50,661 bases of DNA from Shigella phage Shfl1. The stretch is taken from sequence record HM035024. One strand, written 5' to 3'. A program made the translations under genes and the position numbers. The stretch's first letter is position 1, and each line of letters starts with the position of its first letter. The notes under the pieces are model-generated. The model saw only the letters and a program-made list of their open reading frames with translations, was not told where the DNA came from and ran no database searches. Shown one piece after another: positions 1-50,661 of the stretch.

Positions 1-46
1 AGAGGGAGGATCTGGTGTTACCCGGTTCGCCTGGTAGTCATCTCCA

Positions 47-66
47 TTTTTAGCAAAAAGTGCTAT
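47..66 (-). promoter_or_regulatory. conserved promoter-associated motif (reverse orientation), directed out of the window
   Basis: Reverse complement reads ATAGCACTTTTTGCTAAAAA. Confidence 0.4.
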
Positions 67-170
67 CGATTACACTTTAACTTGTCACGACTGTAATATT
101 TGTCTAGAATCGCCATTGTGACAAAATTACACACTGTGACGCCTCTAAATATACATATAGATATATGTAT

Positions 171-187
171 CTATATAATATATATAG
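171..187. repeat. 17-bp AT-rich palindromic element CTATATAATATATATAG (copy 1)
   Basis: Identical 17-mer also at 31230-31246. Confidence 0.85.
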
Positions 188-469
188 TGTTTTTTTTATT
201 TATATATATAGATAATTATATTGTAACAGCTGTGTATAGCTGTCTTACATTGTCTAGCGTACTGTTGGCATATTTCTATCTGCATGTTTATATATACAGT
301 ACTTTTTTGGGAGCTATATATTTCTATAGTGACTCTATACAGCTAGACAAATGTTACACGGCTTAAAATTGGCTCTCAGGCGTTGACGTATCTGCATTGC
401 GCTGTCACAATGGCAATTGTTGACACGTTATGACACCATTTACACACGAATAGACAAAGAGGTTATATT

Positions 470-8487: not shown

Positions 8488-8717
8488 TGTTCGGTTTAAG
8501 TGAAGCAGAATGGAACGTGGTAAAGCGCGCGGCGAAGGAATTAAATAAATTCGTCAGTGGCATGAAAAAAGAAGATCGGAAAAACGACAAAATCATGATT
8601 GACGTTATTTCTGCTCACCACAAAAAGGTCGAATTACTCATCGATCGCTACAAATTTGTCTGGACTGCCGGGTATATTGCCGGGCGCGTAGGTAACAAAG
8701 AAGGGGATTACGAATAA
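8487..8717 (+). CDS. hypothetical protein (76 aa)
   Basis: ORF; overlapping stop/start with neighbours. Confidence 0.5.
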   Translation: MFGLSEAEWNVVKRAAKELNKFVSGMKKEDRKNDKIMIDVISAHHKKVELLIDRYKFVWTAGYIAGRVGNKEGDYE

Positions 8718-8920
8718 TGGCTAATTTACCAAAGAAAGGCGATCAGGTTCGATGCGTAACGTCACGCAGTGGCGATGCTTTCTCTGCTGGCTGCTCTTAC
8801 GATGTGGAAAAGATTAGTAAAGCAAAGAGACTTGTGTATGTGTACGGCGACGATGGAAACTTGCATGAGATTGATTACCCGCAGGATATGACTAAGGGTC
8901 AATTTGAAATTAATGATTGA
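8717..8920 (+). CDS. hypothetical protein (67 aa)
   Basis: ORF; overlapping stop/start. Confidence 0.5.
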   Translation: MANLPKKGDQVRCVTSRSGDAFSAGCSYDVEKISKAKRLVYVYGDDGNLHEIDYPQDMTKGQFEIND

Positions 8921-9085
8921 CCTGAATCCCTGAGCGGTGATAGTATTAATCCCGTAGACATACGAGGCGCAATGAGTCGCAACGCGTGAGACGATTCTCA
9001 CCATTCCAGCTAACAAGCTCGGTTGCATAGTGGTTAAGCAACGCCGCAGACCCGTAAGCGGCAACAATTCAAGAGGATTGCATAA

Positions 9086-9247
9086 TGCAAAACAATAAAG
9101 ACGAATCAGTAAAAATTGAAATTAAAGTAACTCGCAACGGTGAAACCACTCGTTATAAAAAGCGATTAAATCCTGGCGAGGCTGTTATTGGTCGCATTGC
9201 TGGCGTTATGATTAAGGCGCAGGAAGATGAAGCGATTCAAAGTTAAA
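9086..9247 (+). CDS. small hypothetical protein (53 aa, MQNNKDESVKIEIKVTRNGETTRYKKRLNPGEAVIGRIAGVMIKAQEDEAIQS)
   Basis: Hand translated; AAGAGGA RBS 7 nt upstream; below ORF-track cutoff. Confidence 0.35.
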
Positions 9248-9413
9248 TTAATTATTCGAAAGATGGGAATGTTTTGCCAGTCGTGCAAACAATCTTTCGA
9301 AACAGAATTATCTGCAACCAGTCAGGCAGAAGCCATCACGAAAGCGAAGAAACTTTCAGGCGCTAATCTTGACACTCACAAAATAAACATTGAATTAATC
9401 AAGGAGATTTAAC

Positions 9414-9641
9414 ATGACCATTTTTTTATTGATTATCGCTGGTATCGTTATTTTTGGTGCTGGTTTGCTTGCTGGATTCGTACTTGTGGCGGCAGCAATT
9501 GCGATGGACGCGAAGGATAAAACTGGTGTGTGGCTGACCTACTCACCTAAGAAGGACCAGTGGGAAATGACTGGCGACCTTGCTCACTGCTACTCTAAAG
9601 CTCAGACCCACCCAAAAGGCATTAAACGACGATTATCATGA
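9414..9641 (+). CDS. small membrane protein (75 aa)
   Basis: N-terminal transmembrane helix FLLIIAGIVIFGAGLLAGFVLVAAAIA; GGAG RBS; followed by an intrinsic terminator. Confidence 0.5.
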   Translation: MTIFLLIIAGIVIFGAGLLAGFVLVAAAIAMDAKDKTGVWLTYSPKKDQWEMTGDLAHCYSKAQTHPKGIKRRLS

Positions 9642-9650
9642 TAAATACTA

Positions 9651-9673
9651 ACCCGCTTCGGCGGGTTTTTTTA
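9651..9673 (+). terminator. intrinsic terminator
   Basis: ACCCGCTTCGGCGGGT followed by T7. Confidence 0.7.
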
Positions 9674-9691
9674 TGTCTGCAATATGGTAAA

Positions 9692-9710
9692 ATAGCACTA
9701 AATGTTAAAC
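9692..9710 (+). promoter_or_regulatory. conserved motif variant ATAGCACTAAATGTTAAAC upstream of small terminase
   Basis: Motif directly followed by GAGAGGA RBS region; no hairpin. Confidence 0.35.
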
Positions 9711-9725
9711 AGAGAGGATGGATTT

Positions 9726-10250
9726 ATGAGTGAACCTAAGAACGCTCCCGTAGTCCAGGGTGGTAATTTCAAAGAGCTATACAAGAAAAAATTCGGCACT
9801 GTACTCGCGAAAAACCGTGCGATGACGCCTGAACAATTATTCGATCTGTCAGTGAAGTACTTTGAATGGGCCGAGGACAACGCGATCAAGGCGTCAGAAT
9901 CAGCCAGCTTTCAGGGTGGAGTTTATGAATCGCTTGTTCATAAGCCGCGCGTCTTCACCTGGACCGGATACCGACTATTTATCGGTGCAAGCGAGGCCGC
10001 AATCATTAAATGGAAGCGCGAGGAAGAATACAGTGAGGTTATGGAGTTCGTGGAATCCGTAATCAACGAGCAAAAATTTCAGCTTGCCGCAAACGGCGTT
10101 ATTAACGCCTCATTTATCGGCAAAGATCTCGGAATCGACAAGCCAGCCTCAATCAACATCGAAAACTCAGCGGCTTCAGCGTCGACCACCGTCGCCACTA
10201 CTGAGGACGCAATGAAAGAGGCTGTAAACAGTATTCTTGACATGCTTTAA
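9726..10250 (+). CDS. putative terminase small subunit
   Basis: Position immediately upstream of large terminase; start trimmed to ATG 9726 (GAGGA RBS); sequence has no decisive motif. Confidence 0.45.
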   Translation: MSEPKNAPVVQGGNFKELYKKKFGTVLAKNRAMTPEQLFDLSVKYFEWAEDNAIKASESASFQGGVYESLVHKPRVFTWTGYRLFIGASEAAIIKWKREEEYSEVMEFVESVINEQKFQLAANGVINASFIGKDLGIDKPASINIENSAASASTTVATTEDAMKEAVNSILDML

Positions 10251-29880: not shown

Positions 29881-30843
29881 ATACATGTTTGGAGTGAAAG
29901 GAATTGGCATTGAAATGTTTATATTGAAGGGGAATCGCGCTCCGCTTTGGGTGGAATAGTTACCTACTCTTGTTCCGGGGGCGCTTCTCACGTTACCGCC
30001 ACTCATACACACGCCCTTGTATCGAATGTTATTATATCCACCTGTAACTCTGCATATTGTACCAGTTCTAAGTATTGGGAAAAATCCACCGCACCACTGC
30101 CACCCGTCATTTATCGCCATAGTCCCGCCGAGAACAAAAGGACGTCGAACGATTGAGAAAACAATCTGACCAGCAGGATTGCTCATAGTGATTCCAGGGC
30201 CGGGAGGTGGTGGGGTGTTATTAAATATTACGAGTTGAACGTATACGCTCGCGCCAACGTCATCAATACCGTTATAGTTTGCGTCTCTGCACCATATTGT
30301 ATTCCCGTCAGATTCAAGTGTTACATTTGGGTTATCCCACATACCGAAAGGAACACCCTGGACTGGCAACTGAGCCTGACCGTTAACCTGGATGCCTCCA
30401 ACAAATGCCGCACTCATCAACCTGGCGTTATTCGGTATCGCCGCGAAGTTCGTTGAATCGCTAACAAGCATCCCCTGATTTCCAGCCTGGGCGGGGAGAA
30501 TTTCGTAACAGTTGCCGTAAAACCTCATCCTTCTTCCACCATGACCGTTAAAATTACCTACCGTTATTCTCCCGGTTGAATCATTAACCTTCTGAAAGCT
30601 GGTTAAATAATACACCTCCGGGATATAATCCATGTCGTCTATGTAGATAGCCTGAGATGGAAGGCAAAAAGCGGTAGATCCTGGACTCATTTGCAGACCA
30701 AAATCAAAAACCGATCCAGATGAATCAACCCCGTCCGCTTGTATTGGTCCGCACCATGAAGGGGCGCGAAGTCCAGAGGTTATCTCCATTGCCGGACGAC
30801 CGTCATTTAGGTTTATGTATATTCCTTGTCCCATAATTACCAC
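29878..30843 (-). CDS. putative receptor-binding protein
   Basis: 321 aa Gly/Asn-rich protein convergent on gpJ-like gene and co-transcribed with a small lipoprotein, an arrangement like T5 pb5-llp; no catalytic motif. Confidence 0.35.
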   Translation of the reverse strand: MVIMGQGIYINLNDGRPAMEITSGLRAPSWCGPIQADGVDSSGSVFDFGLQMSPGSTAFCLPSQAIYIDDMDYIPEVYYLTSFQKVNDSTGRITVGNFNGHGGRRMRFYGNCYEILPAQAGNQGMLVSDSTNFAAIPNNARLMSAAFVGGIQVNGQAQLPVQGVPFGMWDNPNVTLESDGNTIWCRDANYNGIDDVGASVYVQLVIFNNTPPPPGPGITMSNPAGQIVFSIVRRPFVLGGTMAINDGWQWCGGFFPILRTGTICRVTGGYNNIRYKGVCMSGGNVRSAPGTRVGNYSTQSGARFPFNINISMPIPFTPNMY

Positions 30844-31067
30844 TCTTTGGTTTTGATTGATACCTTACCGCTGAAGTTACCCTGATCGTCGTCGGATGAC
30901 AGACCTTTGAATCGCATATCTATTTCTCCAGCCGGAACCTTCTTGCCGTCAACGAATCGCATCATGCAAGATCCGTAAGTGTAAGTAACGCAGTCTCCAT
31001 TTTTAAGATTCTGAGCGCAACCAGTCAGGATGAATGCAGCAGTAATAATGGCGATTAACTTTTTCAT
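30837..31067 (-). CDS. small lipoprotein, putative superinfection-exclusion factor (Cor/Llp-like)
   Basis: Signal peptide MKKLIAIITAAFILTGC with lipobox LTGC; start trimmed to internal ATG 31067 (GAGGA RBS); adjacent to putative receptor-binding protein. Confidence 0.45.
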   Translation of the reverse strand: MKKLIAIITAAFILTGCAQNLKNGDCVTYTYGSCMMRFVDGKKVPAGEIDMRFKGLSSDDDQGNFSGKVSIKTKEW

Positions 31068-31124
31068 TTGTATGTCCTCGTCTTTAGTGTGATTGCATTG
31101 TATGTCGCATTTACTTTTATTGCA

Positions 31125-31140
31125 ATAGCACGATTGCAAT
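31125..31140. promoter_or_regulatory. palindromic motif variant ATAGCACGATTGCAAT in divergent intergenic region
   Basis: Near-perfect palindrome TTGCAATAGCACGATTGCAA. Confidence 0.3.
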
Positions 31141-31146
31141 TTTTTA

Positions 31147-31320
31147 GTGTAACAGGTGTCTATTTTTGTAACCGTAACGGGTGTTACAAAATACACCACA
31201 TCCGATCGCAGAGGGATATGATAAAAACTCTATATAATATATATAGATAGATAATATTTAATTTTAGCTTTATATATATAATTATTGCTGTGTAACAGTT
31301 GTCTATCGTGTAACAGGTGA
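31147..31320. repeat. iteron-like repeats GTGTAACAG(G/T)TGTCTAT
   Basis: Copies at 31147-31163, 31290-31306, partial 31308-31320; inverted half-sites TGTTACA (31414) and ATAGACACC (31432); palindrome TGTAAC-N10-GTTACA at 31167-31188. Confidence 0.7.
31230..31246. repeat. 17-bp AT-rich palindromic element CTATATAATATATATAG (copy 2)
   Basis: Identical to 171-187. Confidence 0.85.
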
Positions 31321-31480
31321 TTTTATTGATTCGTCAAATTTCTATCATATATGTTCAAAATTTAATCAATATTGATTCTATTCATGGATATCTGTGTATT
31401 TCTAAGAAAATGCTGTTACAAGTATTACACAATAGACACCACATAAAAACAGTGCTAAGCTATTGATTACGTTGACACTG

Positions 31481-31515
31481 GTTGTAACTTGAGCGATATA
31501 GACACGCAATTACAC
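31481..31515 (+). promoter_or_regulatory. candidate sigma70-type promoter for exonuclease/erf/ssb operon
   Basis: TTGACA (31481-31486), 17-nt spacer, GATATA; overlaps a TGTAAC iteron half-site. Confidence 0.35.
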
Positions 31516-31593
31516 GCCAATTACATGTATTCGATTGACTAAACGCCGTTAATGGCTATAATGGATTCATCGTAAACGAAGGAGATAAACGCA

Positions 31594-32658
31594 ATGTTCC
31601 AAGTATTCACATCAAGTCAGCTTTCTAATGACGAGTATCATAGTAACGAAGGTTGGGCGGCAGAGTATGTAAGCGGATCGAGCCTTGCAGAAATCTACCA
31701 AACTTGCCCGGCTAACTGGCGATTCAAGAAGAATGAGACAACGAAAGCGCTTGAGTTTGGCACTCAGTCGCATACTAACTTTGAGAGTCGTGATCTGTTT
31801 ACTGCAACGTATGCACGTTGTCCGGCTCCGTCAGAGTTCAAGGATCTGATTACGTCACAAGCCGCACTGGCTGCAAAATTAAAATCTTTCGGCCTGAAAG
31901 GTACATCCGGCAAGCAATACCCGGACCTCATCAAAATGATGATTGATTGCGGTGAAGAACTCAACGTTCAGTATCTGATCGAACTGATCGCAGAAGCAGA
32001 GGCGCGTGCTGAAGGAAAGCAATTGGTTGACGCTGACAAATACGACGCCTGCATGAAGATGAGGGCGATCCTTGAGCAAAATCCGGATCACGAAGCATGC
32101 ATCAATAGCGAGACGGCTCAGCGTGAGATCTCAATCTTCGGTGAGATATCCGGCGTCAAAGTTAAGGTTCGTCTTGACCATCTGGACTACAAAGAGAATG
32201 TTCCAGGTCGTGTGCTGACTGGTTATGATGAGAGCGGCGATCCGGTATTTGAAGACGTTATTTTCCCTGAAGCGCTAATTATCACTGACTTCAAAACCAC
32301 GATGAGCGCTAACCCGTTAGAGTTCCCGAGACTGGCATACAATCACGGGTATTATCTTAAAATGGCCTTGCAGCATGACCTGCTACGACGTGCAATCCAG
32401 GCTGGCGCTTTTGAAGGAAACTTTCCGGAAGATATCCCGATCGTAGTTCGATTGCTTGCGCAGGAGAAAAAAGAGCCTTACATCGCACTTGCTTACCGTA
32501 TGACTATGGAGCAAATCAGGATCGGGCGCAGTCAGTACATTAGCGTAGTCCACACTTACAAGGCTTGCTCTGAAATGGATGTTTGGCCTGGATACGCTGG
32601 CGATGCAAGCGAGATTGAACTTGAAACGCCGTCATGGGTACGCTACCAAAACAAGTAA
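31594..32658 (+). CDS. putative PD-(D/E)XK exonuclease (RecE-like)
   Basis: 354 aa; D..E..K-like segments VRLDHLDYKE and IITDFKTT; immediately upstream of Erf and SSB genes. Confidence 0.45.
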   Translation: MFQVFTSSQLSNDEYHSNEGWAAEYVSGSSLAEIYQTCPANWRFKKNETTKALEFGTQSHTNFESRDLFTATYARCPAPSEFKDLITSQAALAAKLKSFGLKGTSGKQYPDLIKMMIDCGEELNVQYLIELIAEAEARAEGKQLVDADKYDACMKMRAILEQNPDHEACINSETAQREISIFGEISGVKVKVRLDHLDYKENVPGRVLTGYDESGDPVFEDVIFPEALIITDFKTTMSANPLEFPRLAYNHGYYLKMALQHDLLRRAIQAGAFEGNFPEDIPIVVRLLAQEKKEPYIALAYRMTMEQIRIGRSQYISVVHTYKACSEMDVWPGYAGDASEIELETPSWVRYQNK

Positions 32659-32732
32659 ACGGCACAAATAGCTAAACAAATAATTAATGAGGTGTTATAA
32701 TGCACCTCATACACCAATCAGGAGAAGTTAAG

Positions 32733-33380
32733 ATGCAATTATCACCAGAAACAAACGAAATACTTCCGGCTCTGTTCAACGCTCGCAATAAATTCGCGAA
32801 GGCAAAGAAGGACGCGAAAAACAATCACCTGAAAAATTCATACGCAACTCTTGACGCAATGATGGCGGCAGTAAGTCCGGCGTTAACCGACAACGATATC
32901 ATGATCCTGCAATCAATGCTGGATACCAGTACAGAAACTACTTTCCATCTTGAAACTATGCTGATTCACAAATCAGGGCAGTGGGCCAAATTCTTCATGA
33001 TGATGCCGATTGCAAAACGCGATCCGCAAGGCGTAGGTTCTGCAATGACGTATGCGCGACGTTACTCTCTAGCCGCAGCGCTTGGAATTAGCCAAAGTGA
33101 CGACGACGCGCAGCTTGCGGTGAAATCTGTCAAGGACTGGAAGAAAGAACTTGATGCGTGTGAAGATATCGAGTCACTGAAGGATGTTTGGGCCAATGCT
33201 TACCGCCAGACTGACACAGCGAGCAAGTCAATCATTCAGGATCACTACAACGCACTGAAGGCTAAGTTTGAGATCGGAAAAGCTCGCGGCATTCGCCCGG
33301 CCAAACCGGAACAGAAAAAACAGGTTGAAGCAACGAGCGCGAAACCTGTACAATCCCAATCAATAACCAACTTTGAATAA
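32733..33380 (+). CDS. erf: single-strand annealing protein (Erf family)
   Basis: N-terminal region (LPALFNARNKFAKAKKDAKNNHLKNSYATLDAMMAAV) resembles Erf family; start trimmed to ATG 32733. Confidence 0.5.
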   Translation: MQLSPETNEILPALFNARNKFAKAKKDAKNNHLKNSYATLDAMMAAVSPALTDNDIMILQSMLDTSTETTFHLETMLIHKSGQWAKFFMMMPIAKRDPQGVGSAMTYARRYSLAAALGISQSDDDAQLAVKSVKDWKKELDACEDIESLKDVWANAYRQTDTASKSIIQDHYNALKAKFEIGKARGIRPAKPEQKKQVEATSAKPVQSQSITNFE

Positions 33381-33426: not shown

Positions 33427-33840
33427 ATGCATATTATCACTGGCGAGATCCGAAAAGAGCCTAAGATTCTTGAACGTAATGGCGGGAATACTTATATAAT
33501 CGAACTGGCAGAAAGCTACAAGCCTCGTGATGGCGATCGCGAATACACAAACTACACATTCTTTTTTAGCGATGGTGGAAAGCCTGGTCTTGCTGACTGG
33601 TATCGTGAAGCATTCCAGGTTGGTCGCGTAGTGTCAGTATCGTGCGAGACGTTGAAGATCTCATCCCGTGAGCACAACGGAAATGTTTACAATTCATTGC
33701 AGGCTGCTGATTTTCCGAAACTGGTATTCAGTCAACGAGGTCAAGGTAATCAACAACGAGCACCGCAGCAACAACAACGAACGCAATCACAGCCACAGCC
33801 AAATCCTCAATCAACTTTCGATGATGATATCCCGTTCTAA
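33427..33840 (+). CDS. ssb: single-stranded DNA-binding protein
   Basis: OB-fold-sized N-terminal domain, Gln/Pro-rich linker and acidic C-terminal tail DDDIPF. Confidence 0.65.
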   Translation: MHIITGEIRKEPKILERNGGNTYIIELAESYKPRDGDREYTNYTFFFSDGGKPGLADWYREAFQVGRVVSVSCETLKISSREHNGNVYNSLQAADFPKLVFSQRGQGNQQRAPQQQQRTQSQPQPNPQSTFDDDIPF

Positions 33841-35729: not shown

Positions 35730-35756
35730 CAATAAAAAACCGCCAGAAGGCGGTTA
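35730..35756 (-). terminator. intrinsic terminator after primase (minus strand)
   Basis: Minus strand AACCGCCTTCTGGCGGTT followed by T6. Confidence 0.6.
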
Positions 35757-36689
35757 GAGTAGGTCACTCGCTGAGAATAACTTGGCTTGCATCCCTGAGC
35801 GGTATCCTCCATGATTTGGGATGATTATTTTTAATTGTCGGTCGTCTGCCATGTATAAAGTCTCCTTGTCTGAAGGTTCGCACGCAACCCTTACTTCTCG
35901 ATCCCCTTTATATCTGTATGCAACCATTTCCAGATTCTCAGGAGTGAAGCAGGCCCATACCTCTTGCTTTGTGTGAAATGCAATATGCTGAGCATCAATC
36001 CAATTAAGGCATAAGTAGATCGCTTTTTCTGTTTTACCAGTCACGGCAACCGAACAACTCGTATATTTCTTAGCGTAAAACGATTCCCTTCCTTCTTCAT
36101 CAATAATCAAAATATTGCAAAACTCGTCATCAAGACCGTCCTCGTGTACAAGTTGACACGGGATAGTGTGAAATACGCTCTCCCTGCCATCATCGCGACG
36201 TTTTACGCCAACGTCGAATGATTCAGTTGGTAGAGATTCAAACATGCTTAGAGGTGTGTTTACGCGCTTCTCTGTGCGCTCCATTACTTTCATCACTTCT
36301 TCATGATCTGCCATCATCACATTGACACCAGACACCGGAGTCCTGCGTGCTTTCTTGTTTGCCTTGACGATGTATTCCTGAGGGACTTTTCCGAGAAATC
36401 TTCCCAGGATGTTTATGCAATCGCTATACGGCATACCAGTTAACTTCATCAACCAACCGATCCCGGAGTCGTTACCGCATGAGTTGCAGATCGCACCGCC
36501 GTCTCCTGGAGTGTTCAGATTATCAGTCCAGCGAAAGCGGTCTTTACCTCCGCAGTTAGGGCAAGGTTGGTGCTTCTTGTTGAAAACCTCGTTAGGTAAT
36601 CCGCATACGGACTGGAACGCCTCGCGCCATAACCCATTCATATACGGCAATACGTCCTCTTTCTGAAACATCATAAATTCTTCGTTCAC
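35754..36689 (-). CDS. DNA primase (zinc-ribbon plus Toprim-like)
   Basis: N-terminal CPNCGGKDRFRW...GGAICNSCG matches the primase-helicase zinc-binding domain; GTG start with GGAG RBS. Confidence 0.6.
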   Translation of the reverse strand: MNEEFMMFQKEDVLPYMNGLWREAFQSVCGLPNEVFNKKHQPCPNCGGKDRFRWTDNLNTPGDGGAICNSCGNDSGIGWLMKLTGMPYSDCINILGRFLGKVPQEYIVKANKKARRTPVSGVNVMMADHEEVMKVMERTEKRVNTPLSMFESLPTESFDVGVKRRDDGRESVFHTIPCQLVHEDGLDDEFCNILIIDEEGRESFYAKKYTSCSVAVTGKTEKAIYLCLNWIDAQHIAFHTKQEVWACFTPENLEMVAYRYKGDREVRVACEPSDKETLYMADDRQLKIIIPNHGGYRSGMQAKLFSASDLL

Positions 36690-36746: not shown

Positions 36747-36766
36747 GTTTTAACTAAAAATGCTAT
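36747..36766 (-). promoter_or_regulatory. conserved motif (minus orientation) overlapping 3' end of HTH regulator gene
   Basis: Reverse complement reads ATAGCATTTTTAGTTAAAAC. Confidence 0.4.
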
Positions 36767-37202
36767 TGGTCGTCCCGATATCTTCCTTCTTCACCACTCG
36801 CATAAACTTCTTGTTCTTGCATCGCTTCTCTAGGCACTTGCCGTTACCGTCAAACTTGAGGTCGAATCGCAACCATGCGGCGCGGAATCCTTTACAACCC
36901 TGACGACGGTAAGCACGATGTGCAGCTTCAGCACCTTGCCACGAAATCATGTTGCGCTCCTTCCATCCCTGCACGGTCTGATTGCTAACTTTCAGAGCCT
37001 TTGCGCAGGCCGCAGGGCCGCCATAATATTCGATAAGAGCATCAAGTCTCGCTCTCAGTCCGGCGCGTGTTTCTTCTTTATGGATATAGAAACCGCAGCG
37101 TTGGCGTGGCTTTTTATCTTTACCGCGTCTCGTTCCGTTGTTACCATTGATGTGACGTTTATCGATTTCACCAGTTGACTCTGCGATGCGTTGCATATTC
37201 AT
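36750..37202 (-). CDS. putative HTH DNA-binding regulator (Cro/YdaS-like)
   Basis: GGPAACAKALKVSNQTVQGWKERNMISWQ resembles Cro/YdaS-type helix-turn-helix; basic N-terminus; start trimmed to ATG 37202 (AGGAG RBS). Confidence 0.4.
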   Translation of the reverse strand: MNMQRIAESTGEIDKRHINGNNGTRRGKDKKPRQRCGFYIHKEETRAGLRARLDALIEYYGGPAACAKALKVSNQTVQGWKERNMISWQGAEAAHRAYRRQGCKGFRAAWLRFDLKFDGNGKCLEKRCKNKKFMRVVKKEDIGTTNSIFS

Positions 37203-37214
37203 CTTAATTCTCCT

Positions 37215-37235
37215 GTAGCACTTTTTGCTAAAAAC
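37215..37235 (+). promoter_or_regulatory. conserved motif GTAGCACTTTTTGCTAAAAAC upstream of helicase, divergent from HTH regulator gene
   Basis: TATTAT about 18 nt downstream (37253-37258). Confidence 0.45.
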
Positions 37236-37296
37236 GTTTACTGTATGTCGTGTATTATAGCGTAAACGATACAATGATTCAAAGGATTAAATAGCC

Positions 37297-39315
37297 GTGA
37301 CAATTAACATCAAGAAGCAAATCGCATTACTTGGCGAGGACTATATAAAACGCACTCAAGAACGATTCACTGTCGGTGAGGTCGTTCCTTATCCGTATCA
37401 GGTTGTTGCTTATGCCGAGATCGCAAAACGCCTGTCAAATTACGAGCATCCATTCTTTGTTAAAGCGTCAGTATCTGCGGGTAAAACAATCATATTCGCT
37501 ATGGTGGCAAAGCAGTGTCAAAAAATGGGCCTGAAAATGCTTGTGCTTGCCCGACAGGGTGAGATCGTCGATCAGGATAGTGAGGAGATCGACAACTTCG
37601 GGGTAACGAACTCCATCTTCTCAGCATCGCTTGGAATCAAGTCCTGCTACTTCCCGATCGTGGTTGGCTCTGAGGGTACGGTTGCAAATGGCCTCGACAA
37701 TGAGTTGGCTGATTTTGTCCCGCATGTAATTGGGATCGACGAATGTCACCAGGTGGATTGGGAAGACCTTGCTCAAGCCATCGAAGGAAAAGAAACGATG
37801 GAGCAGATGAGGGGCGAGAAAGGGAAAATTATTATGGACGGGGAGATTCCTCTGATTGGTAATGACGGGAAACCTTTACTTGGAACTAAGCGAAGCCAGT
37901 ATACGATCGTAATCATGGAGATGATGCGTCGCTGTAAAGAGATTCACGGGCATGACCTCAGAATATTTGGCATGACAGGATCTGAATTTAGGGGCGTTGT
38001 TCCGATTCTGGTGGAGAATCCAAAGGCGTTAGGATTCTGGCGTGAGCGCGTAACTGATATCGACACAAACTATCTGATTGAGTTTGGCTCTGTTGTGCCG
38101 ACGATATTCGGTTCGACTGACGGAGTACACTACGATCTGGATAAGTTCAAGGCATCAAGCGAGGACGGCGTACAGGACTTTGCAGAGAAAGATATGAAGG
38201 CAATGGAAGATGAGATCCTTCATGATAAATCTCTTACTCAGCGAATCATGCAAATGGTCGCCAAAAAGGCTGAAGAACGTAACGCGGTTCTGATTACATG
38301 CGCGGGTGTGCGTCACTGTAAAGAGGCGGCGGCGGCACTGCCTCCAGGAAGCACCTATGCAATAATCACTGGCGACACAGACACCAAAACGCGCAAGAAG
38401 ATTCTGGACGATGTAAGGGCCGGGAAGATTAAATACACCTTTCAGGTAATGGCTCTCACTACTGGCGTTAACGTTCCAAATTGGGATTTCAGTGTCATAC
38501 TCCGCAAGATAGGATCTCTCACTCTGTTGATTCAGCTTTTGGGTAGGGGTATGCGGCTGCTTAAATCATGGCAGGTTGCTGAAGGAATGGTTAAGCAAGA
38601 CCATCTGGTATGGGATTTCGCTGGCACTATGGATGAGTTGGGCCAACTTTATTTCGATCCGATACTTGAGCAGGCGCAATTCCAGAAGCGTTTTGAAAAC
38701 GGCAAAGACCCGAAAACGTGTCCTAAGTGTGGTTGCGTTAATAGCTTCTACGCTCGCCGATGCGTTAACGTTATAGACGGTGAGAGATGCGATCACTTCT
38801 GGACTTCTCAGATTTGCGAGGACCAGGTTGATGAGCGAACCGGGAAAATTCTTGTTAAAGGATGTGGTGCCGAGAATGACGTTGTCGCCCGAGTTTGTCG
38901 TTGCTGTGATGTGTCACTTGTCGATCCTAACCTGAAATTGTCCGGCAAGGCGTACACCAAGAATGACTGGTATGAGGTCAAGAATTTTGAGGTAACGCTA
39001 ACCAAAAACCAAAAGGGCGTGATATACAAATACACGCTGATTAACGATGATGGTGATGAGTTCAAGGCGTATGAAAAATTCTTCCCCGAGTCCGACTCTA
39101 AGATTTGCGGTACGCTATGGAAAACTAAGGGTGTATTGCCTCATGTGTCAGATCCTAAAATGCGTCGCTACTTTATCGGAATGAAGAACGCAATCAAGAT
39201 CGTGCAGTACTCACATCATATTGCTCATCCGGTACGAGTCACACACCGACGCAACCAGAAGAAGGAAGATATTATTTCACGTAAAGATTTCGGTATGGAG
39301 GATATCCCGCAATGA
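37297..39315 (+). CDS. SF2 helicase (DEAD/DEAH-box-like) with C-terminal zinc-finger region
   Basis: Walker A SVSAGKT; DExH box GIDECHQ; C-terminal Cys clusters CPKCGC...CDHFW and CRCC; GTG start. Confidence 0.7.
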   Translation: MTINIKKQIALLGEDYIKRTQERFTVGEVVPYPYQVVAYAEIAKRLSNYEHPFFVKASVSAGKTIIFAMVAKQCQKMGLKMLVLARQGEIVDQDSEEIDNFGVTNSIFSASLGIKSCYFPIVVGSEGTVANGLDNELADFVPHVIGIDECHQVDWEDLAQAIEGKETMEQMRGEKGKIIMDGEIPLIGNDGKPLLGTKRSQYTIVIMEMMRRCKEIHGHDLRIFGMTGSEFRGVVPILVENPKALGFWRERVTDIDTNYLIEFGSVVPTIFGSTDGVHYDLDKFKASSEDGVQDFAEKDMKAMEDEILHDKSLTQRIMQMVAKKAEERNAVLITCAGVRHCKEAAAALPPGSTYAIITGDTDTKTRKKILDDVRAGKIKYTFQVMALTTGVNVPNWDFSVILRKIGSLTLLIQLLGRGMRLLKSWQVAEGMVKQDHLVWDFAGTMDELGQLYFDPILEQAQFQKRFENGKDPKTCPKCGCVNSFYARRCVNVIDGERCDHFWTSQICEDQVDERTGKILVKGCGAENDVVARVCRCCDVSLVDPNLKLSGKAYTKNDWYEVKNFEVTLTKNQKGVIYKYTLINDDGDEFKAYEKFFPESDSKICGTLWKTKGVLPHVSDPKMRRYFIGMKNAIKIVQYSHHIAHPVRVTHRRNQKKEDIISRKDFGMEDIPQ

Positions 39316-44744: not shown

Positions 44745-46313
44745 TTAACCCATCAGTCGAGGATTGATGAAAACAATATCATCAATACGGCAAGTGTAAT
44801 TCATCTCTTCGAGCGTAATCAGAAGGCTGTCGATTCGCTCAGATACTTTCTGTTGACCGTTGAACGGCGTAACGTTCCGGCACTTTGCAACAATACTATG
44901 AATAGGTGCGCGCCCTTTGTTCTTCTTTGCGATCTCAGTGATAACATCAATCAGCTTACGAGATTCAGCCTCATCACCAGCATACCCGGCAGCGCTGGCA
45001 GACGACAGATAAGTCCTGGAAAGCTCATTGAAGATCATGATCGCTTCCTGCATTGTTTCAAGGTCAATCTCACGGTTGGAACGGTTCGGTGATTCACCCT
45101 CCCAATTCTTGATCGTGTGTAGAACTGAAGCAATACGCAAAGCGTGCTTATCGAACTTGCCGAGATGACCGCGAAGCATTGAGTGAGAGTATTTTCCCCC
45201 GGCGGCGAAATCAGGCTCCATCGCCTGGCGTGCAAGGTTTAATTCACGCATAGCATTACGGCTCACAGAGAGAACAACGTTGTCCTCCTTCATGATGTTG
45301 TGCACGAGTCTGTAATATTTGCTAACCAGTCCGCGATCGACTTCTTTATACAGTGCATCACCATTTTCATCACAAAGAATACGAGTACCTAAAAGCGGTT
45401 CCTCTCGAACCAGGAGGAAACGCTCAGATACACCGATACCGCGCTGTCCTGCGTCCATGATACCCTTGATTGTTTCATCCTGAGCAATTACGCAGATTGA
45501 ACCGACCGGGCATAGAGACAAGTTATTATCCTGGTTGGAACGCGCGACCTCCATATGGTTTTTATCCCACGCCTTAAGGATAAGCTCACTGTTAGATTTC
45601 TTATCTGAACCGCCATACGTAAGCCCGAGCAATGTATTGATTGCCGTTGCCTCGTCAGATATTACGGAAAAGTGACCTTGCACTGCCGCCACTTTCGCAA
45701 GACCTTCAGGTGTAGGATCTGATACCGCGAAAACAATATCAGCCATCTTCTTGATCTTCTCTTCCAGTTTTTCTTTGTCCTCGTACAGTGCCGCAGTCGT
45801 GTTGCCTTTAGGATCATTCTTGATTTCCTTCTCAACCTGGCGTAGCTGACTGGTTAAACGGATACGTTCCTTTTTGCGCTCTTCATTCAGTCGCTGAATC
45901 TCCGCACGCATAGGTGTAATCGCCGCTGAGTTAATCGCTGACTTACCTGTTGATGGTGGCTGGCTGATTACCATGTAAAGCGCGGTCGGCTGTTCCTCTC
46001 CGTGATATTGCACCCAAAACTTCCCGAGCATCGCGGCTGAGATGCAACCGATAAAATGAGCATACGCGGATGAAACCGGGAACTGGACTGATTCAGCTTT
46101 TGCTTTTGCATATTCGAATACCAGGTTATCACCACCTAACGAAATCAGAGGGAACTTATCGTTTCCGCTGTTGATATCGATCGGATCTTGCCAAAAAGAA
46201 ACTGAATCCCCGTAACTGTTTTCACGAATTGCGATCGCCACCGGATTCACTCCAGTGCTATTTGCGATCTCAATAATTTGTTGGTAATTCAGTTTTGGCT
46301 TAATGTTAAACAT
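44745..46313 (-). CDS. P-loop NTPase (DUF3987-like, putative replication ATPase)
   Basis: Walker A ISQPPSTGKSA; Walker-B-like VISDEA; start trimmed to ATG 46313 (AAGGAG RBS). Confidence 0.5.
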   Translation of the reverse strand: MFNIKPKLNYQQIIEIANSTGVNPVAIAIRENSYGDSVSFWQDPIDINSGNDKFPLISLGGDNLVFEYAKAKAESVQFPVSSAYAHFIGCISAAMLGKFWVQYHGEEQPTALYMVISQPPSTGKSAINSAAITPMRAEIQRLNEERKKERIRLTSQLRQVEKEIKNDPKGNTTAALYEDKEKLEEKIKKMADIVFAVSDPTPEGLAKVAAVQGHFSVISDEATAINTLLGLTYGGSDKKSNSELILKAWDKNHMEVARSNQDNNLSLCPVGSICVIAQDETIKGIMDAGQRGIGVSERFLLVREEPLLGTRILCDENGDALYKEVDRGLVSKYYRLVHNIMKEDNVVLSVSRNAMRELNLARQAMEPDFAAGGKYSHSMLRGHLGKFDKHALRIASVLHTIKNWEGESPNRSNREIDLETMQEAIMIFNELSRTYLSSASAAGYAGDEAESRKLIDVITEIAKKNKGRAPIHSIVAKCRNVTPFNGQQKVSERIDSLLITLEEMNYTCRIDDIVFINPRLMG

Positions 46314-47541: not shown

Positions 47542-47862
47542 TCATTTTTTACCGTCCCATGTTTGATACACCGTCACAAGGTTAATGCTATGGTCGAACT
47601 CGTCAATGCTAAGCGATCCGATTCGAACCAGTTCTTTATCATGCTTTATATCAATCATCCGGCTATATGGATGGCCTGGAACATATTTGAATAGTCGCTT
47701 ACTGTCAGCAATGTCGGCGTTGATTCCATAGAACCGACCTACAGCCGCCTTTACGCGTTCCATGATGTTTTTTTCGTGGATTGCTGCCGCGTTATTCAAT
47801 GCCGCGACCGTGCTTCCGTTAATCTTCGGTGATTTCGTTGTGATTTTATAAGTGTGGTTCAT
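47542..47862 (-). CDS. hypothetical protein (106 aa)
   Basis: Start trimmed to ATG 47862 (GGGGGA RBS). Confidence 0.45.
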   Translation of the reverse strand: MNHTYKITTKSPKINGSTVAALNNAAAIHEKNIMERVKAAVGRFYGINADIADSKRLFKYVPGHPYSRMIDIKHDKELVRIGSLSIDEFDHSINLVTVYQTWDGKK

Positions 47863-50445: not shown

Positions 50446-50504
50446 TGCATGATTCCTCTGATTGGTTGATGTGATGAATCATACCCTGCCAACATGGATA
50501 AGTC

Positions 50505-50522
50505 GTTAGCAAAAAATGCTAT
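50505..50522 (-). promoter_or_regulatory. conserved motif (minus orientation)
   Basis: Reverse complement ATAGCATTTTTTGCTAAC; TATGAT downstream on minus strand. Confidence 0.4.
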
Positions 50523-50661
50523 TCCAATAGTTGCTCATTATTCCATCAATACTGGAATAGTTGGAATAATTTTGATTGTGATTGATTGCGAATGATGAAA
50601 CGTGATTATTGCATGATGTGCAACAGTTGTTTGATTTGTTGCTGAGATTGCAATGATTGTG

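Follow-up and report, generated by a model that had tools for sequence, protein, structure and literature searches.

In the genome of Shigella phage Shfl1, the 526-nucleotide (nt) intergenic region between a cor-type lipoprotein gene and the exonuclease VIII/Erf/SSB operon, here termed module B, is a constrained cis element of a protein-binding type, and a paralogous copy, module A, lies elsewhere in the same genome. The window, meaning the whole stretch of 50,661 nt that was analysed, is a complete T1-like phage genome (genus Tunavirus, family Drexlerviridae). An earlier note on this DNA had proposed that the region serves either as a replication origin or as an operator of divergent transcription; phased repeat arrays, an AT core of low duplex stability and the pattern of conservation uphold the view of it as such a cis element, while the sequence singles out neither of the two functions. 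The reading that we favour, tentatively and on sequence evidence, is that module B may be one of two paralogous replication origins, each composed of iterons and an unwinding element, and that it possibly doubles as an upstream control region of the exonuclease promoter. We infer protein binding, the identity of the binder, unwinding and initiation at the modules. The iterons on both sides of an unwinding-prone core, the presence of two copies and the lineage-specific sites together constitute the match to known phage and satellite origins.

The repeats listed in the earlier note, namely two copies of a 17-mer with a partial third, two inverted half-sites and a palindrome, were all found in place by direct reading and with a repeat finder (Table 1), and they are better described as iterons of 9-10 bp that begin with TGT (TGTAAC, TGTCTA or TGTAAT). 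These iterons are helically phased and form four arrays around a 60-nt alternating-AT core, a candidate DNA-unwinding element; they include at least three short direct repeats in helical phase, as looked for in an iteron origin, and the last, promoter-proximal group of sites stops 10 nt short of the -35 hexamer of the exonuclease promoter. Because the TGTAACA site is itself a TGT-N-ACA palindrome, its orientation is ambiguous. With up to three mismatches allowed, the 17-mer has five matches in the genome where 0.14 are expected, and phased triplets of the form TGT-N6/7-TGT-N6/7-TGT occur eight times on the two strands together, seven of them within the two modules, for which shuffled sequences predict 0.08. 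The modules, 1,211 nt in total, hold 17 copies of ATATATA, five of TGTAACAG and eight of TGTCTA, against none, none and four in the remaining 49.4 kb. DnaA boxes (TTWTNCACA) number three in the whole genome, with 5.1 expected, and neither module contains one. One consensus match for IHF lies at 31456-31468, but we do not regard it as a site, as the genome-wide count is at chance (5 found, 3.6 expected). In the Tempevirinae, AATCAATAGTTTA, a perfect IHF consensus, is present in the cores of both modules (for example at L009:17262-17274 and 47773-47785).

Module A came to light through a motif search, which returned two further matches at 221-237 (+) and 343-359 (-). It fills the second large divergent intergenic region, which runs from 50446 to 50661 and on through 1-469 (positions 50661 and 1 were treated as joined, the genome being permuted); leftward and rightward blocks of small early genes flank it, and it spans the conventional start of T1-type sequences. 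Both modules follow the same order, with a left array (+), the AT core, a right array (+) and two successive inverted arrays (-), a colinear block of approximately 80 nt is common to them, and the surroundings of the module A core are well conserved too. Two separated copies of the same organization were found not only in Shfl1 but also in the genomes of Henu7 (Tempevirinae) and Klebsiella phage cp41 (Webervirus). The earlier note had called module B the largest non-coding block of the genome; 31251-31593 is indeed the longest stretch free of open reading frames (ORFs) of at least 50 or 60 amino acids (aa), but the module A gap (50446-469, 685 nt) is longer once the ends are joined. At 281-300 of module A, GCATGTTTATATATACAGTA resembles a LexA box (TACTGTATATATATACAGTA), with ATG instead of the critical CTG in one arm.

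In a nearest-neighbour free-energy profile, the two cores take the first two ranks in the genome for low duplex stability at lengths of both 60 and 100 nt, with 60-nt z scores of 5.8 and 5.6, the second of these belonging to module B, and 3.1 for the third-ranked segment. The same picture of two low-stability outliers is repeated in S2_02, Henu7 and cp41. The iterons are therefore accompanied by an adjacent AT-rich segment of exceptionally low duplex stability, as computed, which is the second feature looked for in an iteron origin.

The interval 30800-32700 is 92-93% identical to that of Shigella phage S2_02, DELF2, ISF002 and approximately 60 others, and the 526-nt region is approximately 90% identical to that of T1 itself. 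We aligned 16 distinct Tunavirus sequences and took the fraction of variable columns in each segment as the measure of conservation. The earlier note had made its proposal depend on the repeats recurring at the syntenic position in relatives; they are present in all 16 aligned sequences, and genus-specific equivalents were found in the Tempevirinae, Braunvirinae and Webervirus. The AT core is the least variable segment at 0.07 (5/74 columns), followed by the exonuclease promoter and leader (0.10), the right array (0.14, 5/35), the start of the exonuclease coding sequence (0.15, almost all at third positions), the spacer (0.22), inverted array 1 (0.25), the left array region (0.43) and the cor gene (0.58); the core thus varies less than the adjacent exonuclease coding sequence (7% versus 15%). 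The cor-type lipoprotein gene, associated with superinfection exclusion, varies more than any other segment of the locus and stands beside this almost invariant non-coding core; its variable columns fall at all codon positions (39/35/59).

With a core conserved above coding DNA and motif statistics far beyond chance, it is scarcely credible that the modules are functionless AT-rich spacers or relics of a duplicated or mobile sequence. Phages often have AT-rich intergenic DNA, and the modules do share their colinear block, but the architecture is kept across subfamilies and distant contigs despite turnover of the sequence. It is also very unlikely that the region encodes a small protein or small RNA to which the repeats are incidental. 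Most GenBank records leave it unannotated, some carry hypothetical proteins there, and the T1 record annotates a 46-aa ORF that corresponds to the small ORF 31317-31466. This ORF was rejected as a coding sequence: codon 3 is an in-frame stop in 15/15 other Tunavirus sequences, and its variable columns by codon position (9/19/12) show no third-position excess, as compared with 1/1/14 in the exonuclease gene. The stops and the lack of third-position bias indicate that the constraint is not protein-coding. A search of the genome against Rfam gave no match at the gathering score, with only a chance-level match in the region (E value 0.98), no terminator was found inside the region, and a scan of 31126-31534 for plus-strand promoters matching at least 9/12 consensus positions returned none.

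As blastn searches with the region gave matches in Tunavirus only, the exonuclease and helicase proteins served to reach more distant relatives. In every Drexlerviridae lineage examined, 400-500 nt of non-coding DNA upstream of the exonuclease gene follow the same design, with a central alternating-AT core, flanking phased short repeats, inverted copies approximately 100 nt to the right, and further copies before a conserved TTGACT promoter, at a distance of a few nt in most genera and approximately 30 nt in Webervirus. The repeat itself changes with the lineage: it is TGTAAC in Tunavirus and in L023-type genomes, TGTAAT in the L022-type (10 copies), TGTTTC or TGTTC in the Tempevirinae (Henu7, ityhuna, TLS and others), GTAAC with GTATAC in the Braunvirinae, and GTAAGAT in Webervirus, with nine copies in Sin4 and 10 in module B of cp41. 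Within one genome, both modules have the same hexamer in each of the three lineages checked (Shfl1, Henu7 and cp41); in cp41, approximately 45 nt are identical between the two cores, and 13/16 genomic copies of GTAAGAT sit in the two modules. Because the sites are lineage-specific and several of these phages share E. coli as a host, a phage-encoded binder is likelier than a host factor. In Webervirus the module directly follows a same-strand operon encoding a helix-turn-helix (HTH) protein, an HNH protein and primase, the primase gene ending in a terminator; with an upstream neighbour on the same strand, the module is kept even where it does not lie between divergent promoters.

Three distant metagenomic phage contigs (L106, L107 and L108) were found via helicases that are 35-36% identical to the DUF3987 helicase of Shfl1. 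In each, a module is located within 10 kb of the helicase gene, its core is the strongest low-stability outlier of the locus, and direct repeats on one side of the core face inverted copies on the other, with GGGCTA, GGGCG or GGGGG as the iteron. The module of L108 is directly upstream of the helicase operon. The core word AAAAACTCTATATAA is common to Shfl1 and L108, and TATATAGATA is common to Tunavirus, Webervirus and L106. The left neighbours of the L108 module are lambda-like early genes, including an N-antiterminator-like gene.

The exonuclease operon has a close match to the promoter consensus, TTGACT-16-TATAAT, which the earlier note had missed; it is invariant in Tunavirus, recognizable in every other genus examined, and annotated as a promoter in two GenBank records. 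The promoter that the note did propose, TTGACA-17-GATATA, exists as a sequence, although at 31472-31500 (+) and not at 31481-31515, and its -35 is not conserved in other Tunavirus genomes; it is probably not a conserved promoter. On the minus strand, the SA32RD record annotates a leftward promoter different from our weak candidate for the lipoprotein operon and approximately 35 nt further to the right.

The inverted arrays touch promoters, and a regulatory role is thus also plausible. A purely transcriptional function of the modules is the main alternative to the origin reading, possible though we consider it rather unlikely; the TGT sites would then be operator or activator sites for a phage regulator that times divergent early promoters, the AT core would be a UP-element-like, curved or nucleoid-protein-binding spacer, and no replication would start at the modules. 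Consistent with this, both modules lie in large divergent intergenic regions that head early and recombination operons, although Webervirus keeps its module without the divergent-promoter setting. In every genus the last sites end just before the conserved exonuclease -35, in module A one inverted array separates the promoter-like TTGACG-17-CACAAT from the ATG, and a TATAAT-like hexamer at the left edge of the core (about 31233-31238 in module B) is kept even in the distant contigs. The six sites beside the AT core stand at distances of more than 100-250 nt from either promoter. Against a purely transcriptional role, the scan of 31126-31534 described above found no plus-strand promoter, and the approximately 400 nt of constrained DNA between the two promoters far exceed what an operator needs. 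The arrays are helically phased direct repeats and not palindromes of the dimer type, and they occur at two loci only, while more than 20 other promoter-associated elements of the ATAGCAC type (see below) lack them. The phage does encode a Cro-type HTH protein, but the DNA-reading residues of this sole recognizable HTH regulator do not track the sites as those of an operator-binding protein would. Its recognition helix is nearly constant across subfamilies (SNQTVQGWKER / THQVIQQWRKR / SIQVVQQWRKR), being almost the same in Henu7 (THQVIQQWRKR) and Sin4 (SIQVVQQWRKR) despite completely different sites (TGTTTC and GTAAGAT, respectively), and we therefore disfavour this protein as the iteron reader; regulators that were not recognized may be encoded besides it.

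The position of module B immediately upstream of exo/erf/ssb in the Drexlerviridae raises a further, improbable, alternative, in which the modules would serve another DNA transaction: a programmed break or entry site for exo/Erf/SSB recombination, which would serve concatemer formation and recombination-dependent replication, a barrier to forks of the kind proposed for SPP1 oriR, or part of the packaging signal. For the second origin copy of SPP1, a role in stalling forks and in bringing about the change to concatemeric replication has been proposed (PMC6316719), and module A covers the conventional T1-type sequence start. A pac site is single, however, whereas there are two modules; the modules of L106 and L107 lie 6-15 kb from the exonuclease gene; and we found no evidence of recognition by a nuclease or terminase.

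Table 1. Coordinates of the two modules, their component features, neighbouring and replication genes, and related elements; positions refer to the window unless a contig is named.
Feature	Position	Strand	Remarks
Module B, whole intergenic region	31068-31593		between cor-type lipoprotein gene and exonuclease VIII/Erf/SSB operon
Candidate sigma-70 promoter TTGCAA-17-TACAAT (9/12), lipoprotein operon	31097-31125	minus	weak; consensus match only
Imperfect ATAGCAC element, ATAGCAC-GA-TTGCAATTTT	31125-31145	plus	left edge of module B
Left iteron array TGTAACAGG / TGTCTATTTT / TGTAAC	31147-31172	plus	TGT starts 31148, 31157, 31167; spacing 9 and 10 nt
17-mer GTGTAACAGGTGTCTAT	31147-31163		direct repeat copy
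Palindrome TTTTGTAAC-N10-GTTACAAAA	31164-31191		arms conserved, loop variable among Tunavirus
Single inverted site	31183		left of AT core
Alternating-AT core, candidate DNA-unwinding element	31225-31284		contains CTATATAATATATATAG (31230-31246) and TATATAGATA (31240-31249)
Right iteron array TGTAACAGT / TGTCTATCG / TGTAACAGG	31289-31319	plus	TGT starts 31291, 31300, 31309
17-mer GTGTAACAGTTGTCTAT	31290-31306		direct repeat copy
Partial third copy GTGTAACAGGTG	31308-31319
Perfect 14-bp palindrome AATCAATATTGATT	31364-31377		in ~100-nt spacer between convergent arrays
Inverted array 1, TGTCTATTG / TGTAATACT / TGTAACAG	31413-31440	minus	minus-strand reading
Inverted half-site TGTTACA	31414-31420
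Inverted half-site ATAGACACC	31432-31440
Promoter-proximal sites, mostly inverted	31483-31525		TGTAAC (+) 31483, TGTCTA (-) 31499, TGTAAT (-) 31509 and 31520
Exonuclease-operon promoter TTGACT-16-TATAAT (11/12)	31535-31562	plus	consensus match
Shine-Dalgarno AGGAG	31580-31584		exonuclease ATG at 31594
Module A, left part	50446-50661		degenerate iteron copy GTGCAACAGTTGTTTGAT at 50618-50635
Module A, right part	1-469		paralogous to module B
Module A ATAGCAC element	60-66	minus
Module A left array	83-103	plus
Module A AT core	161-220		17-mer CTATATAATATATATAG at 171-187, identical to that of module B
Module A right array	221-256	plus
Module A inverted arrays	339-359 and 423-456	minus
Module A promoter-like TTGACG-17-CACAAT	383-411
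cor-type lipoprotein gene	30837-31067	minus	Pfam Phage_lipoprotein; left neighbour of module B, with DUF6453 gene
Exonuclease VIII	31594-32658	plus	first gene of operon right of module B
Erf	32700-33380	plus	same operon as exonuclease VIII
Putative SSB	33427-33840	plus	no Pfam match; named from T1 gp27 homologue
Zn-ribbon primase	35754-36689	minus
Cro-type HTH protein	36750-37274	minus	adjoins primase
DUF3987 MCM-like AAA+ helicase	44745-46313	minus	522 aa counted from second Met
Other ATAGCAC copies	1000, 1736, 2897, 5844, 6364, 7861, 39725	plus
Other ATAGCAC copies	46386, 46886, 47402, 48518, 49131, 49548	minus
Module of contig L106	L106:1-503
Module of contig L107	L107:2960-3560
Module of contig L108	L108:9081-9692

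Among the closest known systems, the lambda origin and the iteron plasmids combine phased direct repeats with an adjacent, easily melted AT-rich segment and, near a promoter, inverted copies that serve Rep autoregulation; in lambda, the iterons are contained in the O gene, to one side of the AT region. Phased direct repeats by an AT segment and inverted copies near a promoter are seen in the Shfl1 modules as well, but an O-like or Rep-like initiator is not recognizable in Shfl1 and the modules are without DnaA boxes. Satellite phage P4 has two separated cis regions, ori and crr, that share one short iteron, to which a primase-helicase binds with its C-terminal domain; this protein, P4 alpha, is a fusion of primase and SF3 helicase, unlike the arrangement in Shfl1. 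The Tempevirinae sites (TGTTCAC) resemble what we take to be the P4 iteron, which we treat as a lead only. In SPP1, one protein binds two similarly organized origins, each with direct repeats plus an unwinding element rich in AT (PMC6316719). Like Shfl1, SPP1 is a pac-type siphovirus of similar size with two separated sequences of like organization, one of them in a long non-coding region. The binder in SPP1 is known to be gp38, and neither it nor the likewise known DnaB-type helicase and loader have relatives in the T1 set of MCM-like DUF3987 helicase and Zn-ribbon primase; oriL of SPP1 lies inside the initiator gene, and the Shfl1 repeats flank the core on both sides and are joined by extra inverted arrays.

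The origins of staphylococcal pathogenicity islands (SaPI) have 6-12 penta- or hexanucleotide iterons split by a central AT-rich region; a self-loading AAA+ helicase from the MCM-related clade reads these iterons with its C-terminal winged-helix domain (PMC9371898). The Shfl1 modules likewise have iterons with a hexanucleotide core on either side of an AT core, and the phage encodes an MCM-like helicase with a winged-helix-like C-terminus. The SaPI ori is, however, directly downstream of rep, whereas the helicase gene of Shfl1 is 4-13 kb from the modules. The orientation of the sites appears to differ as well. A SaPI-type origin would have at least two iterons per side, the two sides in opposing directions; the arrays that flank the Shfl1 core run in the same direction, with the opposing arrays approximately 100-200 nt to the right and a single inverted site on the left.

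The DUF3987 helicase is the best candidate for an initiator-helicase, which would bind the iterons through a small terminal domain. Members of the DUF3987 family are 5'-3' helicases that work with the primases of mobile genetic elements (PMC11724360). The best Foldseek matches of an AlphaFold model of the Shfl1 protein (pLDDT 88) are MCM subunits (E value 1e-5). The C-terminus of the model has the order alpha-beta-alpha-alpha-beta-beta (H447-464, E468-470, H471-478, H490-503, E507-510, E513-516) and may be winged-helix-like, as judged by topology only; on this predicted topology the protein has the combination seen in SaPI, an MCM-clade AAA+ helicase with a C-terminal winged-helix domain. The N-terminus is modelled as a three-helix bundle, and both termini diverge faster than the AAA+ core. 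Searches against PDB chains with the single sequence and with a profile gave no meaningful match and no solved relative, and they revealed no sequence similarity to the solved SaPI Rep chains. Helicase identity is 94-100% across the Tunavirus contigs retrieved (99-100% in 11/12), and all 12 of these helicase contigs that are also in the 16-sequence alignment carry TGTAAC iterons; in the TGTAAT phage the protein is 80% identical overall and 52-68% at the C-terminus. A search on plasmids for a minimal replicon that couples the helicase with an adjacent module gave only two matches, one of them in what is probably a phage genome deposited as a plasmid. In CP124687.1 (Paraclostridium bifermentans, 49,647 bp), positions 8625-10172 encode a T1-type DUF3987 helicase with 47% identity over 96% of the protein; this plasmid-filed sequence has the length of a T1-like genome and may be a phage or phage-plasmid genome.

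Two other binders are possible, an unrecognized small early protein or, in the ResIII helicase (672 aa), the N-terminal domain. The 171-aa gene adjoining module A is disfavoured, as its product ranges from 47 to 100% identity within Tunavirus while the aligned module B iterons are unchanged. At 37274-37297 the minus-strand HTH/primase operon and the plus-strand ResIII helicase gene are divergent, with only 22 nt between the ORFs, so that their promoters must lie inside coding sequence or further upstream.

If the modules are origins, a phage-encoded, sequence-specific protein would occupy the phased TGT iterons of 9-10 bp on either side of the alternating-AT core of approximately 60 nt. According to the twin-domain model, outward-facing promoters add negative supercoiling to the DNA between them; supercoiling from the lipoprotein promoter on the left and the exonuclease promoter on the right could help the core to melt. 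The MCM-like helicase and the Zn-ribbon primase would then enter at the melted core, and the inverted arrays beside the exonuclease promoter would couple occupancy of the module to expression of exo/erf/ssb. In Tunavirus the primase gene is 4 kb from module B, and 13 kb separate the helicase gene from module B, 4 kb from module A. It is conceivable, although we regard it as doubtful, that this represents an ancient origin design, common to T1-family phages and to more distant siphoviruses with the DUF3987 helicase, in which the helicase reads the iterons itself and is its own initiator and loader, following the logic of SaPI and of archaeal and eukaryotic systems.

Several observations weigh against an origin of this kind. 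Both modules are found where early divergent promoters are expected, and their promoter-touching inverted arrays fit operators equally well. The core is conserved in its exact sequence and not just in composition, which suggests a sequence-specific role, such as that of a promoter-like TATAAT at its left edge or of a protein site, rather than that of a passive unwinding element. Cumulative GC and AT skew tracks gene orientation and transcription, with no replication signal. Unlike the origins of lambda and SaPI and oriL of SPP1, the Drexlerviridae module is not beside the helicase gene; as the distant contigs were retrieved through their helicases, the co-occurrence of module and helicase in them is partly by construction. 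As for the helicase as reader of the iterons, its third C-terminal helix is acidic and hydrophobic, which is atypical for DNA reading, and the divergence of its termini is modest.

The sole repeat family previously reported in T1-like genomes is a separate element. The ATAGCAC-N3-TTGnTAAAA element corresponds to the 21-nt intergenic repeat aaATAGCACnnnTTGnTAAAA described for TLS and T1 (PMC11447400); ATAGCAC is present in 23 copies, mostly upstream of genes along the direction of transcription, and is unrelated to the TGT iterons and the AT core, although copies edge both modules. The module B copy departs from the element in having N2 for N3 and TTGCAATTTT for TTGnTAAAA, and the next plus-strand gene is 470 nt away, where an element of this family would be expected approximately 70-76 nt upstream of a start codon. 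The HTH protein fits this family-wide element better than it fits the iterons, and the two may be a cognate pair, for example an activator and its site at middle or late promoters. Some 5-8 nt beyond the ATAGCAC-N3-TTGnTAAAA element there is a 7-bp hairpin, the stem sequence of which varies among copies while pairing is kept (76% paired versus 62% in shuffles), with a covariation score of 0.47 versus 0.25 (reached by 0/500 shuffles; slid controls 0.12-0.20). The hairpin loop contains a TATAGT-like hexamer, followed by a conserved CAACAACGAAnGAGGA leader and the start codon; the distance from TTGnTA to TATAGT is 22 nt, which exceeds a normal sigma-70 spacer.

The genome paper on TLS reports that iteron-like repeats are found nowhere in that phage (PMC11447400), recent T1-family genome papers found no origin or iteron-like repeats (PMC11447400, PMC7718038), and in the literature searched we found no description of a T1-family origin or transcriptome, or of the module itself. 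The kind of element is well known, but this family of modules, in two copies and across the Drexlerviridae and distant relatives, appears to be undescribed. The seven classical T phages include T1, and the Drexlerviridae are very common coliphages, fermentation contaminants and candidates for therapy. The modules are the best current candidates for the replication origin of T1-type phages, which is still unmapped, or otherwise for a shared early-gene control region, and the old question of where T1 replication starts becomes directly testable with two precise, conserved and tractable candidates of 60-500 bp per genome and a candidate trans-acting protein. Should the modules prove to be regulatory instead, they would constitute the master early control region of the family. 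If they are origins, this would settle where and how T1-like phages start replication, give a first origin map for T1 and provide a portable, phage-dependent replication cassette. If the helicase is in addition the initiator, this would explain why no initiator gene or origin was found in the family and would be the second case in a bacterial virus of an MCM-like, self-loading initiator-helicase.

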